NCBI GenBank assembly: GCA_949296775.1
Contig: CASFQA010000005.1
Span: forward strand, 3,320 to 67,319
Length of the DNA: 64,000 nucleotides
Direction of reading: 5' to 3'
From: an uncultured bacterium
GTDB taxonomy: Bacteria; Bacillota_I; Bacilli_A; RFN20; CAG-826
Shown: positions 15,922-25,501 of the stretch, piece after piece
Numbering within the stretch: position 1 is the stretch's first letter
Layout: each line of letters opens with the position of its first letter
The notes under the pieces: model-generated
What the model saw: only the letters and a program-made list of their open reading frames with translations
Databases searched by the model: none
What the model was told of the DNA's origin: nothing
Position numbers and translations under genes: made by a program

Positions 15922-16460
15922 TCAATGGACTAATATAATGAATTTTTCGCTCGCGACCTGCTCGGCCGACTTAAGGGCTAAAGCGACCCGGTACACCGCT
16001 TGGTCAAGGCTAAGGCCGTTCTTTTCCCCAAGGGCTTTGTAAGTCAAACCGAGGCCGTATTTATCGTATAGTATCGAATACTCGTCCGAGCCCAGTCGCG
16101 CTTTAAGGGCATCCAAATATATTTTAATCGACGCCCTCTGCGCGAGCGGCTCATCGCGGAGGCCGAAGCCTCAAAGAATTCCGAATCGCAATCTTCGTAG
16201 GATAGTTCCTGAAAACGATCGATGGCCTTATGCTTTATCACCCCGATAATGAACTGAGTCAGTTGGCCACGTTCCCGTCTTTCTTTCCAAAAAAGCCAAA
16301 ACACCATCCATCATGGCATCTTACGCTTCCTCGAAACCCAAGCCTGAGTCCAACCCGATCTTGATGAATAGATGCTCGTGTTTTTGAAAATAGACTTTCC
16401 AACGAAGGTCATATAGGCAGCGGTCCAAGAAGACTTTGGCCTTTCGTTCGTCTTCCATGC
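15922..16460 (-). pseudogene. Frameshifted paralog of the ECF-type sigma factor at 18846-19382
   Basis: Three consecutive minus-strand frames match successive parts of the intact sigma factor. MEDERKAKVFLDRCLYDLRWKVYFQKHEHL matches its N-terminus. QFIIGVIKHKAIDRFQELSYEDCDSEF matches region 2. SDEYSILYDKYGLGLTYKALGEKNGLSLDQAVYRVALALKSAE matches region 4. Confidence 0.7.
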
Positions 16461-16555
16461 GATTACTTTATACATGAAACGAGGGAGTCAAGAAAACGAG
16501 CGGGGTCTGAGCCAATAGGCGCATCAGCAATCATTAGCAAGACCCATGCTGCTAT

Positions 16556-17104
16556 TTATCGACCATCGATTCGACGACTGGAACACGGATATCCCACGCA
16601 GCCTCGAAAAGGGACATTGAATTTATCAAGGAAATTTTCAGCAAAATACTTTGTTAAAATCGCGTTGTTGGGCAAAACAACATAATTGCACCAGCTTTGT
16701 CCGATATAAATGAAGGACTGCGTAACAAACACTCTCCGAATTAACACCGAGCGAGTAACCGAATCCGTTTTAAGCGTAAGGATCGGCTCCTTCTTTGCCT
16801 TATCGACAAACACTGAATATTCCGTTCCTTTTGGACAAGCCAAATAGCGTCGATGATAAAAAAGAATAACGTGTATAAAAATCAGCTCGGCCCCCCATTC
16901 CACGCCAGTAACCGCCCAAAAAATAGGGTTTAAATACCATTCGTTAATCGCCATCAATCCTGAACTGACGAAAACGGTTAGAATAAAGAATACCAATGGG
17001 ATCCAAGCCCGAGCAAAAATATGCTCATAAAAGAAGGCGTTAATGGCCGCTCGATGGTTATCATCCTTCCATGTTCCAGAGAAAATGGCCTCAGTATTTT
17101 CCAT
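16556..17104 (-). CDS. Membrane-anchored hypothetical protein (candidate anti-sigma or immunity component)
   Basis: 182 aa with a TM helix (IPLVFFILTVFVSSGLMAI). ATG has an AAGGAG RBS. Directly downstream of the PPC-domain protein gene. Confidence 0.55.
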   Translation of the reverse strand: MENTEAIFSGTWKDDNHRAAINAFFYEHIFARAWIPLVFFILTVFVSSGLMAINEWYLNPIFWAVTGVEWGAELIFIHVILFYHRRYLACPKGTEYSVFVDKAKKEPILTLKTDSVTRSVLIRRVFVTQSFIYIGQSWCNYVVLPNNAILTKYFAENFLDKFNVPFRGCVGYPCSSRRIDGR

Positions 17105-17114
17105 ATTCGACTCC

Positions 17115-22494: not shown

Positions 22495-23826
22495 TCAATA
22501 TCTGTGGACTTCCTTGTCAAACGCTTTCTTCCCATCTACAAAGGAAAGATTAGGATGCCTTTTTAGATACCGATCGAGTGCTGGATCTCGAACGTAACGA
22601 GCAAACTTTTCAGACACGAATTCCCGAAGACGGATATAAAAGCTAGGGTTGTCTCTTTTTGCTCTCAAAGCAATATAGGCCGAAAATTTGATGATCTCCC
22701 CGGTCAAATAGCACTCTGCGGGGTTTGGCCCTCCGACAGCGGCCTTTTCAATGGCACAAGGCCCTCCGCAATAAGTTTTGTAAAGACAATCCGGACACTC
22801 GCGAGCTTGCTCATCCAGTCTCACGCCGGCATCGGCAAGAACGCCGGGCTCTATAATGGTTCCGAGCAACCCAATAGAGGGGGAGCAAGGATAGACAAAG
22901 CCATCTAAATCAAAGGCGAAACGAGTGATGCCGCCGTCACAACGGTTAATTGTCTTCTTGTTGCCGAAAAACCGGCACAAAAATCTGCCAAACCAATCGT
23001 CTCCATTCATTAAACGCAAAAATCTAGAATCATCTCCAGCCAAAGCATCATGAAGCAAGGCGCGAGATAATCGTTCGTATTCAATCGCCCATGCGTGGGC
23101 GTGTTCCAAATCAAGACGAAAACCATCGCCGCGGACATAACGGTAGCTTAGGGTTTTAAAGATTTTCCCGAGTTCATCAATACTTTCCAGTAAAGGAAAC
23201 GAATCGTTTCCGATAGTCGCCGCGCAACCAATGTAATCCCTGCTAGCAATGGACATCACATTATCCAATATAGTTTTATAAGTGCCTTTGCCGCGATATC
23301 GATCATTTATTACTTCGTTCCCGTCAAGCGATACTCCGAACAATATTTCATGATCTTGAAGCAACTTAGCAATCTTAGGGGTCAGCAACGTGCCATTGCA
23401 AACAAATTGAGGCAAAACCTCGGTCATTATGCGATTGCTGATTTCATGACAGTAATCAGCTAGCGGGAGAATGACATCCAGATTTAACAAAGGCTCACCG
23501 ATTCCTGACAAATCAACGAAATATTTCTGACCGTCCGGAAAAAGAGAAAAGAGGTTATCCAAAATATCCTTAGCCTGCTCAAGGCTCATCCTCCGTCCAG
23601 ACTTGTTCTTGTTAAAACAGTACGAACAACGGAGATTGCATCGGTCAGAAACCGCCAAGCAAAAAGTATAAGCGGTCCTGGGGACAAACTGCGCAATCTG
23701 GGTTAAATCAACAGCAGGAGGAGCGGACGGAAAAAGGCTTGGGTTAAGCGAAAATGCGCGCGAATCTTCATCAATATACAAGTTATCCTGCAGTACCGTA
23801 AAACTTTGTACCATTGCGTATTTCAC
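22495..23826 (-). CDS. Radical SAM enzyme with a C-terminal SPASM domain (peptide/protein-modifying maturase, anSME-like)
   Basis: CNLRCSYC radical-SAM cluster motif. SAM-binding GIGEPLLN. SPASM CxxCx5Cx3C (ECPDCLYKTYCGGPC). About 60 aa precede the cluster motif. Start is either GTG at 23826 or ATG at 23814. Confidence 0.8.
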   Translation of the reverse strand: MKYAMVQSFTVLQDNLYIDEDSRAFSLNPSLFPSAPPAVDLTQIAQFVPRTAYTFCLAVSDRCNLRCSYCFNKNKSGRRMSLEQAKDILDNLFSLFPDGQKYFVDLSGIGEPLLNLDVILPLADYCHEISNRIMTEVLPQFVCNGTLLTPKIAKLLQDHEILFGVSLDGNEVINDRYRGKGTYKTILDNVMSIASRDYIGCAATIGNDSFPLLESIDELGKIFKTLSYRYVRGDGFRLDLEHAHAWAIEYERLSRALLHDALAGDDSRFLRLMNGDDWFGRFLCRFFGNKKTINRCDGGITRFAFDLDGFVYPCSPSIGLLGTIIEPGVLADAGVRLDEQARECPDCLYKTYCGGPCAIEKAAVGGPNPAECYLTGEIIKFSAYIALRAKRDNPSFYIRLREFVSEKFARYVRDPALDRYLKRHPNLSFVDGKKAFDKEVHRY

Positions 23827-23886
23827 TCGCTATAATGCCAGATAGAGAGAATCCATAAAAAGAAAAGAAACCCTAGGCCCCAAAAA

Positions 23887-24420
23887 TTAAATTGATTGAT
23901 TAGATTCAGAGACAATTCTATCGGCTAAGTCGAAGCACTGAGCAACTAGTTCAGGCTCAATAGAAAAATATCGTTGTGAAACGTAAAGCTCATCAGATAA
24001 AACGCGAATCCACCTTGGCAAAAACAATTCCATAAACGGCGGATCTGACCCGAATGCGTGACCAAGCGTGATTTGGTAAATTCCGCATTCAGAGGTAGGA
24101 AAATCATCAGGAAATTGTTCGGGCGCATCAGGATAGCACTTATCGCAAACATTAACTGGGGTGGCCTTTTCGAGTATGTCGATAAAAGGAAGCGAGTCAT
24201 CTCCGAAAACAATTGGTTTCGAATCAAAGGTTAATGAATAGCCTTTCCGAAGAGAAACGCTGCTTAAAACGCTGAAATAAGAAGAGTTCTCGCAGGCGGC
24301 TTTACGCGTGTGATAAGCCAAGAGGCTGCACGAGGATAAGTCGACCGCAGCGAGAACAAAAATCCCGAAAACACAACGAAACAGCCCGTTTGCAAATCTT
24401 TTAGCAAAGCCCGAAAACAT
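23887..24420 (-). CDS. Cysteine-containing putative lipoprotein (candidate rSAM substrate or partner)
   Basis: Signal peptide with an LSSC lipobox, and cysteines including CDKCYPDAPEQ...SECG. Ends 60 nt upstream of the rSAM gene and overlaps the preceding gene, consistent with an operon. Confidence 0.55.
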   Translation of the reverse strand: MFSGFAKRFANGLFRCVFGIFVLAAVDLSSCSLLAYHTRKAACENSSYFSVLSSVSLRKGYSLTFDSKPIVFGDDSLPFIDILEKATPVNVCDKCYPDAPEQFPDDFPTSECGIYQITLGHAFGSDPPFMELFLPRWIRVLSDELYVSQRYFSIEPELVAQCFDLADRIVSESNQSI

Positions 24421-25501
24421 AATCGCTGAAAAGCTCCGTCACCTTGGCTCGAACGTTTACTGGTTTCTTGTCCTCGCTCGAAGGATAAGTTTTATTTCCG
24501 TTCAACAAGTAATACTTGGCCACATCGGTTCCGTTTGAATAAGAAGACGATTCCTTCCAAACGCCATTGTTATAAGTCAAGCCAAGCATGTCCCCTACTT
24601 CGCAGAGGAACTTTTGCTTATTCGACCCACTCCAAGAGGAATTTGATTTTGAAAGTACCGCATCAACAAAATGGTTTTTTCGGAAAGTATCATTGAGATT
24701 ATGGTAATAGTTTTCCACCGCTGTCGAAACATGCTTATCGGATGGCAAAAAATCTCTGGCAATAATCATTCCGTCGATATCGGCCAAAACATCTTCCTGG
24801 GAACATTGCCCAAAAACTGACATAAACTTGCCAAAGTTGTTCATGCCAAGAACAGTTGAATATTGATCTATGCGAATCGAATTCACCGCCGTTTGCAAAT
24901 CCCCGGCCCAAGAAGCTAAATCCATGACATATTCATCACCCAAGGGTACGGAAGGGGACACAAAACCAATATCCAAGGTATTTTCATAAGCAGCATCCAT
25001 AACGGCGAACATATGGATCAAATCTATGCCGCGGTAGGACTTAACAGGATCTTTAAAACACAAACTTTGCCAAGAAGAACCTCTAGGATGACTAAAATTA
25101 TCGCCACGATGGGCTGAGCCACCCCATTTGCCGCCATCGACAAACTGCGAAAAATAATAACCTGATTGGTTAAAGGCGTCGACGGTCGATGAGACCAAGA
25201 AAATGTTAGGATCATATCCGGCTACATACGCCCAAAGGGCGGCCTTATCAAGTCCGTTGCCGGTGTAGCCGATATAATCCTCATTGAAGCTTCGCAAATA
25301 CATCATAGTGATATTCGGTTCAGCCGAAGACATAAATTGAGCGACTTCAATGCAATAAGCCTTAGCAAAAGGCTCAACAAATTCGATATGGCTAACCAAC
25401 TCGGAAACAGTCGTCGACGAGAAAGAAGTCGACGAAGTAGTTGCCGTTATATTAGTTAATGCTGACAAGGCAACAGGAACAACAGATATAAACGATCCCA
25501 T
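24401..25501 (-). CDS. Hypothetical exported protein (366 aa), first gene of the rSAM operon
   Basis: N-terminal hydrophobic segment and a GGAGG RBS. No recognisable enzymatic motif and no sulfatase C/S-x-P-x-R motif. Confidence 0.55.
   Translation of the reverse strand: MGSFISVVPVALSALTNITATTSSTSFSSTTVSELVSHIEFVEPFAKAYCIEVAQFMSSAEPNITMMYLRSFNEDYIGYTGNGLDKAALWAYVAGYDPNIFLVSSTVDAFNQSGYYFSQFVDGGKWGGSAHRGDNFSHPRGSSWQSLCFKDPVKSYRGIDLIHMFAVMDAAYENTLDIGFVSPSVPLGDEYVMDLASWAGDLQTAVNSIRIDQYSTVLGMNNFGKFMSVFGQCSQEDVLADIDGMIIARDFLPSDKHVSTAVENYYHNLNDTFRKNHFVDAVLSKSNSSWSGSNKQKFLCEVGDMLGLTYNNGVWKESSSYSNGTDVAKYYLLNGNKTYPSSEDKKPVNVRAKVTELFSDYVFGLC

Follow-up and report, generated by a model that had tools for sequence, protein, structure and literature searches.

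What occupies the interval between two conserved core blocks in a gut bacterium when no mobile element is visible there, and how is its content renewed? The question is raised by a stretch of 64,000 nucleotides (hereafter, the window; GenBank assembly GCA_949296775.1, contig CASFQA010000005.1, positions 3,320 to 67,319) from an uncultured bacterium of the GTDB lineage Bacillota_I, Bacilli_A, RFN20, CAG-826. In the window, an island at 15.9-25.5 kb separates uvrA and a DUF362/4Fe-4S gene from a PFOR (nifJ-type) gene and surrounds a tRNA-Pro(GGG) gene (Table 1). The guanine-plus-cytosine (GC) fraction is 0.42-0.48 across 16-25 kb (the low block runs from ~16.0 to 25.5 kb) and 0.55-0.61 in the flanks, and all island features lie on the minus strand of the window except the tRNA and one DUF4143 relic. 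We consider it probable that the island is foreign accessory DNA and that the locus is a hotspot of horizontal gene transfer operating without an integrase, located at the conserved core junction PFOR - tRNA-Pro(GGG) - DUF362 - uvrA of an uncultured gut 'Bacilli' lineage. A preliminary description of the window had listed the tRNA-Pro gene, a sigma factor pseudogene, a DUF4143 relic and a lipoprotein relic, all of which were recovered where it had placed them or close by. Below, we discuss the comparisons that favor a hotspot, the alternative origins that have to be weighed against it, and the cargo itself.

The comparison draws on 11 independent conspecific contigs (L001-L011), recovered by exact-protein look-up of the DUF362 and DUF4143 products (the same look-up with the window's PFOR returned nothing), and four relatives from a DUF362 protein scan of one genome per species, all of them metagenome-assembled genomes (MAGs) labeled as uncultured 'Bacilli' or 'bacterium'. 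The conspecific contigs are 96.6-99.3% identical to the window over ~21 kb, with identical gene order. Among the relatives, amino acid identity of DUF362 to the window is 97% in L012, 94% in L013 and 77% in L015. The contigs L097-L099 match L012 at 96-98% over aligned flanking DNA (L099 at ~96.4%) and belong with it to a sister lineage. The same PFOR ... DUF362-uvrA frame holds different content in the window, L012, L013, L015 and L097-L099. L013 and L015 retain the order PFOR ... tRNA-Pro(GGG)-DUF362-uvrA with the tRNA at a distance of 100-260 bp to DUF362; in the interval from PFOR to the tRNA, L013 carries a single 490-aa gene (PHROGs 'DNA helicase', with a partial PADLOC Argonaute-associated match) and L015 carries LysR, MATE and membrane-protein genes. 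Nucleotide similarity of these two loci to the window at the tRNA is confined to 20563-20659, which is the tRNA plus a 19-bp leader, and ends at the tRNA 3' end. L012 shares with the window a block of two sigma factor genes around genes for a 525-aa and a 182-aa protein (sigma-525-182-sigma), 92-96% identical between the two species. It further carries an intact 177-aa version of the second sigma gene (sigB), an intact 177-aa lipoprotein-like gene (lipoB) directly after PFOR, and a DUF4143 gene with 79% nucleotide identity to that of the window, and it lacks window positions 22449-25547 (a three-gene cassette) and 19815-20527 (the segment bearing the DUF4143 relic). These comparisons define two slots, one from PFOR to the tRNA 3' end and the other from the tRNA 5' side to DUF362. 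The preliminary description had proposed a variable island between uvrA/DUF362 and PFOR, and the differing content of the relatives agrees with it; the variability lies in the sister lineage and the distant relatives, as the locus is fixed and syntenic in all 11 own-species assemblies. As a separate observation, two small genes in L013 (198 and 149 aa, with signal-peptide-like N-termini; 11119-12121 of that contig) separate DUF362 from uvrA, which are directly adjacent in the window, L012 and L015. The PFOR and uvrA proteins of L015 are 89% and 80% identical to those of the window, yet the GC fraction of its locus is 0.37, compared with ~0.55.

Recombination has left its mark in the flanks of the island. 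Within the window species, the island core (16.3-22.7 kb) is nearly clonal, with 0-0.4% divergence. The 5' two-thirds of DUF362 (~15100-15860) is a mosaic of at least three haplotypes that are 5-16% apart, and the 26.3-28.1 kb part of PFOR forms a patchwork whose blocks differ by 4-19%. As background, 500-bp bins of uvrA diverge by 0.2-1.8% and rpoB/rpoC by 0.1-0.7% per kb, and uvrA separates both species cleanly, at 99-100% identity within and 85-86% between them. PFOR and DUF362 alleles are nonetheless found across species at 99-100% identity, L010 sharing its PFOR allele with L012 and L097, and L098 sharing its allele with L002, L003, L006 and L011; in DUF362, L003 and L005 are nearer to the L097/L098 alleles than to the window. 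The recombination signal sits in DUF362, in PFOR and inside sigB, and not between the paralog pairs to which the preliminary description had pointed. That description had also held that turnover proceeds by homologous recombination, which the mosaic DUF362 and PFOR genes support, with the correction that the substrates are the core flanks and different alleles of one gene rather than paralogs.

From the mosaic flanks and the alleles shared across species, we infer both a direction of events and a mechanism. Foreign, lower-GC genes would fill the two slots, one on either side of the tRNA. Double homologous recombination, placed in the core genes on either flank, would be the main route by which new content enters, spreads and is replaced; at least one crossover would have fallen within sigB, a resident gene, and the exchange partners would be strains and sister species. 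Occupants that were cut or made redundant would persist as relics, namely the sigB pseudogene, the 3' end of lipoB and the C-terminal DUF4143 fragment. This agrees with a published model of hotspots free of mobile elements, whose diversification goes through recombination in the core genes beside them (Oliveira, Touchon, Cury & Rocha 2017, Nat Commun; PMC5635113). The present locus resembles them in having variable content between one core-gene pair, no integrase or transposase, defence-type cargo, a tRNA within the spot and raised recombination and diversity in the flanks (5-19% in the DUF362/PFOR blocks compared with 0.1-1.8% in uvrA/rpoB/rpoC, the latter being two control regions). Unlike those hotspots, it is documented by ~15 metagenome-derived loci rather than by a full pangenome, its exchange crosses a species-level boundary, and one of its crossovers lies inside a resident accessory gene. 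The island would thus be a well-resolved case of a known process, in which accessory genes are swapped among strains and species without mobile-element machinery, and is in that sense not surprising; its relics serve as a record of earlier occupants.

Differing content among relatives could also arise if the block were ancestral to the clade and had been lost or replaced in L013, in L015 and partly in L012, so that the pattern would reflect differential loss and not acquisition. The sigma-525-182-sigma block shared by two species would fit such a history, and the direction of the cassette polymorphism is not polarisable from the present data. We regard this history as very unlikely, since the island lies 10-15 GC points under its flanks, its cargo includes extremely rare families (7 and 16 clusters), and the tRNA directly adjoins DUF362 in both outgroups, L013 and L015. 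The near-zero diversity of the core compared with the diverse flanks likewise argues for recent spread.

The sigB pseudogene gives the closest view of a crossover. Its intact, divergent counterpart, sigA, encodes a 178-aa protein that, as a single sequence, scores below the family cut-offs (15.4 bits for Pfam region 2, 14.8 bits for region 4, and 36.7 vs 42.9 bits for TIGR02937). The designation of both genes as sigma factors similar to the extracytoplasmic function (ECF) type is supported by a profile of the six-member family, which matches solved ECF sigma factors, namely SigL (E=4e-6, nearly full length) and also SigW. The two genes share ~53% protein identity, and sigB is interrupted by one in-frame TAA nonsense codon and three -1 frameshifts, which together with its tblastn match to sigA bears out the earlier recognition of an intact sigma gene and a decayed copy. 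The TAA codon and one 1-bp deletion are common to 11/11 conspecific assemblies, further 1-bp deletions occur in subsets of strains, and L006 has an 11-bp deletion, as in a pseudogene under neutral decay.

Lesions shared by 11 independent assemblies are not assembly errors, and this bears on a more general doubt, that the relics are sequencing or assembly frameshifts in otherwise complete genes. The window is seemingly metagenome-derived, as its matches are metagenome contigs and MAGs only, and strain-level decay elsewhere in the island includes split gene calls (YkzU and radical SAM in L006, YkzU in L007), some of which could be errors of single strains. For the three relics of the window, this reading is refuted by the identical sigB lesions, by the 98 codons missing from the start of the lipoB relic and by the loss of the entire ATPase domain from the DUF4143 relic; we give it practically no weight for the island as a whole. 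The earlier claim that these are real gene relics therefore holds.

The two halves of sigB have different histories. The intact 177-aa sigB of L012 and L099 is the orthologue of the 5' half (16213-16458); in the 3' half (15891-16212), a divergent allele has taken the place of the original. Nucleotide identity to L012 is 88% upstream of ~16213, beyond which 322 bp of the window and 323 bp of L012 are unalignable; at the protein level, the N-terminal half is 89% and the C-terminal half 40% identical to the orthologue. At this same point within sigB, ~16213, the clonal core of the island ends on its left side. sigA follows the same trend between species, with 89% amino acid identity in the N-terminal half and 69% in the C-terminal, region-4 half, for which allelic replacement is one possible cause and diversifying selection, acting on the specificity for promoters or anti-sigma factors, another. 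Taken over its whole length (18846-19382), sigA is 80-82% identical in nucleotides to L012 6478-7014, while the adjoining 525-aa and 182-aa genes are 95-96% identical.

These breakpoints are also where the mechanism favored by the preliminary description, cassette exchange by homologous recombination between paralog pairs within the island (sigma, DUF4143 and lipoprotein), finds its evidence. A breakpoint inside sigB at the very border of the clonal core, and sigma genes whose C-terminal halves are both far more diverged between species than their N-terminal halves, are compatible with such exchange. The sigB event, however, joins alleles of one gene and not sigA with sigB, and no pair has nucleotide identity sufficient for RecA-type recombination. 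The lipoprotein-like paralogs lipoA and lipoB are 33% identical in amino acids, and the lipoB-side junction of the cassette abuts the 3' end of the radical SAM gene, not lipoA. For the DUF4143 relics, no similarity to the intact gene is detectable, and the sub-model that they match is a different one. We therefore find paralog exchange distinctly improbable as the motor of turnover.

The lipoprotein and DUF4143 pairs illustrate the point. The lipoB relic has two in-frame stops and internal deletions, and the evidence for it inside the window alone is weak (18 aa, E=0.017); it is accepted as real because it is syntenic with L012 3739-3979 (blastn) and aligns to the intact L012 orthologue. The earlier pairing of a lipoprotein gene with a relic thus stands as far as the relic is concerned, but the pair is no recombination substrate. 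The DUF4143 relic beside the tRNA resumes past a frameshift and continues to ~20525. Its best PADLOC PDC-S01 sub-model is PDLC04790, that of the intact gene is PDLC04792, and BLAST detected no similarity between 20160-20441 and the adjacent intact gene. A probable second relic near 54 kb, which gave no match in a Pfam scan, resembles the first at 31% over 54 aa (E=2e-5), a weakly supported relationship, and tblastn of both relics against the DUF4143 genes of L012, L013 and L099 gave no hit. The preliminary description had taken these fragments for decayed copies of the intact gene, which this disparity contradicts; the first relic, and probably also the second, stems from a member of another subfamily. 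With 33% amino acid identity in one pair and no similarity in the other, these genes and relics are too divergent to act as recombination substrates, and paralog exchange is largely refuted for both. The relics are the remains of earlier occupants, not evidence for paralog-mediated exchange.

Mobile-element machinery was sought throughout the island. Neither an integrase nor a transposase was found in any island open reading frame (ORF) with Pfam, NCBIfam, PHROGs or PADLOC, in line with the preliminary description, and none was found in six-frame stop-to-stop pieces of 19389-20165, the longest interval lacking an assigned feature, although shorter gap pieces, including those of 22085-22500, were left unscanned. 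Six-frame translations of the gap at 19.4-20.2 kb gave no Pfam match, and Rfam found nothing besides tRNA-Pro over 15.5-26 kb. A second copy of the 33-nt tRNA 3' end is absent from the 64 kb with up to three mismatches allowed, and no direct or inverted repeats flanking the island were found.

Several observations nevertheless weigh against an integrase-free hotspot maintained by core-gene recombination. The tRNA 3' end is the exact limit of similarity between species, as it would also be after an old integrase-mediated insertion. The 3.1-kb cassette of YkzU, lipoA and radical SAM genes, which is present in L097-L099 with both breakpoints exactly as in the window and missing from the near-conspecific L012, is a presence/absence polymorphism in the sister lineage; its junctions lie 44 bp past PFOR and within lipoB, and the alternative alleles share no homology there, so that illegitimate recombination or an unseen mobile element must lie behind at least the founding event. 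In the distant contig L096, a trio of YkzU, lipoprotein and radical SAM genes lies within 3 kb of Phage_integrase and Rep_trans genes, which suggests that such cassettes can ride integrative elements. The comparison set is also small, at 11 + 4 genomes, many from one study series, with ~20 kb compared in each, and 'elevated' flank diversity is relative to two nearby control regions.

Some of these observations would be explained if the island were a decayed classical element that a tyrosine integrase had inserted into the tRNA-Pro 3' end, with integrase and att sites since lost and most of the variation due to differential decay. As in tyrosine-integrase tRNA islands, low-GC accessory DNA adjoins the tRNA and begins exactly at its 3' end, many cargo genes are broken, and the L096 trio keeps company with an integrase. 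Unlike in such islands, neither an integrase nor a relic of one was found, the scanned six-frame pieces included; the tRNA 3' end occurs once, without att duplication or flanking direct repeats; and the tRNA has foreign DNA on either side of it. An inserted element would, moreover, leave the mosaic core flanks and the alleles shared between species unexplained. We consider such an origin unlikely, although better placed than the other alternatives, and return to the integrase-free hotspot for the discussion of its cargo.

Table 1. Features of the island, its core anchors and a distant relic (window coordinates)
Feature	Position	Strand	Evidence or remark
uvrA	11810-14665	-	Pfam; left core anchor block
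DUF362/4Fe-4S (Fer4) gene	14745..15860	-	Pfam PF04015 E=1e-55; left core anchor
sigB, ECF-like sigma pseudogene	15922..16458	-	tblastn vs sigA E=9e-25, match 15958-16410
182-aa predicted membrane protein, partner of the 525-aa protein	16556..17104	-	95% identical in L012
525-aa secreted/anchored protein, central PPC/collagen-binding-type beta-sandwich	17115..18692	-	AlphaFold2 model, pTM 0.73
sigA, intact divergent ECF-like sigma factor, 178 aa	18846..19382	-	TIGR02937, family profile
Species-specific 713-bp segment bearing the DUF4143 relic	19815..20527	+	Absent from L012, L098, L099
DUF4143 C-terminal relic	20160-20441	+	Pfam 31.3 bits vs cut-off 28.1; last 60 domain positions
tRNA-Pro(GGG)	20582..20658	+	ARAGORN; Rfam 62.7 bits; conserved locus landmark
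AAA_14 + DUF4143 ATPase, PD-(D/E)XK-like C-terminus	20776..22092	-	Pfam
Perfect 33-bp tandem duplication	22128..22193	.	Repeat search; upstream of the DUF4143 gene
lipoB relic, 3' 80 codons	22217..22447	-	tblastn vs L012 lipoB residues 99-177 E=1e-6
YkzU-lipoA-radical SAM cassette, 3.1 kb	22449-25547	-	Absent in L012; present in L097-L099
Radical SAM/SPASM maturase-like enzyme	22495..23826	-	Pfam PF04055 (Radical_SAM) + Fer4_12
lipoA, 177-aa signal-anchored/lipoprotein-like protein, lipoB paralogue	23887..24420	-	tblastn vs L012 lipoB E=2e-22
YkzU-family protein, 366 aa	24401..25501	-	PF27189 assignment in a public collection
PFOR (nifJ-type)	25592..29161	-	Pfam; right core anchor
Probable second DUF4143/PDC-S01 relic	54118..54279	-	PDLC04790 E=8e-5; interval from P-type ATPase gene to rplK

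The cargo had been described as a run of hypothetical and accessory genes, but it is no miscellany. Orthologues of the radical SAM gene in other genomes, 38-46% identical, were compared for their neighborhoods, and homologues of its island companions recur beside it. In L092, a sigma gene stands divergent to a series of radical SAM, a 541-aa homologue of the 525-aa protein and two 175-aa membrane proteins. L183 has radical SAM, a 528-aa homologue and a 164-aa protein in the same order, and L181 has a divergent sigma-like gene followed by radical SAM, a PPC-domain homologue and a 182-aa protein. In L180 and L100, a divergent sigma gene adjoins radical SAM, and the sigma genes that adjoin radical SAM in L092, L180, L181 and L100 are homologous to sigA. 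L096 differs in carrying YkzU, a lipoprotein and radical SAM in that order, amid PycTM, HEPN and TIR/ThsB genes and adjoining integrase and Rep_trans genes. Since genes for a sigma factor, a radical SAM/SPASM enzyme, a PPC-domain protein and a membrane protein are found side by side again in unrelated genomes, much of the cargo probably belongs to one undescribed system. This co-occurrence is what is new here. The four genes would form the system proper, to which YkzU and the lipoprotein would be an optional module; in the window, the arrangement is interrupted by the DUF4143 gene and the tRNA.

The radical SAM enzyme offers a starting point for what such a system might do. Its best NCBIfam match is NF047865 (PapB), at 126.4 bits against a cut-off of 340, and all other NCBIfam radical SAM families tested scored far under their curated cut-offs. 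The closest solved relative is PDB 5wgg (E=1e-31), which we take to be CteB, the thioether-forming enzyme of the SCIFF system. As in PapB/CteB-type maturases (PapB being a ranthipeptide maturase), a CxxxCxxC motif and C-terminal cysteine clusters are conserved: C63, C67 and C70, along with C344, C347, C353 and C357 of the SPASM region, are invariant across three orthologues 43-45% identical. Unlike those maturases, the enzyme falls below every curated family cut-off. The upstream gap of its orthologues in L092, L180 and L181 (85-200 bp) seems too short for a precursor-peptide gene; no conserved short ORF is apparent beside radical SAM in the gene calls of these three contigs, for which no dedicated short-ORF search was made. 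Another difference lies in its constant neighbors: either a PPC-domain protein of 350-540 aa together with a sigma factor and a small membrane protein, or YkzU together with a lipoprotein. The family comprises >110 clusters. A scan of viral contigs with the radical SAM alignment found no relatives, and a metagenome scan, which returned 80 generic radical SAM loci, had L100 as the only true orthologue among them.

Among the presumptive partner proteins, the 525-aa protein was modeled, and Foldseek places the central region of this model, solely over residues ~120-265, with the ColG CBD, PPC and C-CPE, and it found no structural match for the C-terminal half. The family has 16 homologue clusters among 5.8 billion sequences, some with PF04151, and the gene carries a 1.2 kb internal deletion in L011. 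The 182-aa protein matched no family in Pfam, NCBIfam, PADLOC or PHROGs; it has weak homology (E=2e-6) to a 175-aa protein of L092 that itself lies downstream of the 525-aa homologue. YkzU is represented by 7 clusters among the 5.8 billion sequences and by three population haplotypes that are 86-87% identical in nucleotides; its AlphaFold model (pLDDT 37) is unusable, and a literature search on 'YkzU' returned nothing relevant. The lipoprotein label of lipoA is uncertain, as its motif is atypical (L-S-S-C only), while the L096 homologue, in the same position within its trio, has a canonical LLAGC lipobox. A substrate domain common to the YkzU and 525-aa families was considered and dropped, with an hhalign probability of 0.2%.

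As a best guess, the system would modify a secreted or surface protein by radical SAM chemistry under sigma control, and the target may in that case be a full-length protein rather than a short peptide. A fuller version, in which one undescribed sigma-controlled system has a maturase that acts on or with the PPC-domain and membrane proteins and moves among gut Bacilli via hotspots and integrative elements, is offered tentatively, as a possibility that we would not yet favor. The place of the YkzU module in L096, among TIR/ThsB, PycTM and HEPN genes, suggests that it could belong to a new system of anti-phage defence or inter-bacterial antagonism. The L096 contig (ENA ERZ28612977 scaffold_1771, 1-17326) is itself defence-island-like: PycTM, HEPN and a dCMP-deaminase-like gene accompany the trio, ThsB_TIR and TIR_2, beyond which lie Phage_integrase, Rep_trans and a CI-like repressor. 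The recurrent neighborhood is the more valuable by-product of this analysis, as a candidate protein-modifying or defence/antagonism system, and the cargo system is the sole part of the island with real potential for novelty.

The intact DUF4143 gene is a candidate for a different function. It matches PADLOC model PDLC04792 over its full length (residues 1-438, E=7.5e-141), which would make it a single-gene candidate anti-phage ATPase/nuclease of the PDC-S01 type. DUF4143 is classed in the PD-(D/E)XK nuclease superfamily (PMC3424549), and among rumen genomes PDC-S01 is reported to be the commonest single locus (PMC13356809), so its presence here is unremarkable. Experimental proof of defence activity for the AAA_14-DUF4143/PDC-S01 family was not found in the literature examined. 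In keeping with PDC-S01, it is a single gene in a variable region, with divergent alleles and relics of other members nearby, and its defence role is that of a candidate only. Two allele classes, ~79-82% identical, straddle the species boundary, and L097 has a 262-bp internal deletion. Core defence hotspots flanked by conserved core genes (Johnson et al. 2023, Nucleic Acids Res; PMC10250203) are similar in that a conserved marker pair encloses alternatives of defence type, which in this locus are PDC-S01 (window and L012) and the different, 490-aa gene of L013. Unlike in those hotspots, only one gene of the present locus matches a defence catalogue, as a candidate, and most of the cargo is the sigma/radical SAM system, with no known defence role.

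Smaller features accompany the DUF4143 gene and the tRNA. The 33-bp duplication is present as two copies in every strain of the window species, some slightly diverged, and is absent in L012, L098 and L099. Between sigA and the tRNA, a non-coding stretch of 210 bp (19605-19814) is 77% conserved with L012, L098 and L099 while both of its sides are unalignable; it has no Rfam and no Pfam match.

Two further regions of the window vary or are interrupted. The far side of PFOR (29270-35300) is also variable among conspecifics: a 634-aa gene is replaced by two different ABC-ATPase genes in L004 and L007 (636 and 683 aa), L006 lacks window positions 29287-32253, and L005 and L010 differ at 31.2-32.0 kb. 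A tRNA-Lys(CTT) gene lies nearby at 35320-35395, and the region may be a second hotspot beside the first. At 53900-58800, the conserved secE-nusG / rplK-rplA junction is split by four genes, encoding a 197-209-aa protein, a 468-aa lipoprotein, an ArsR-type HTH_5 regulator and a P-type ATPase. This block, which includes the probable second DUF4143 relic, is present in L184-L186, with slightly raised divergence of 1.4-2.6% per kb.

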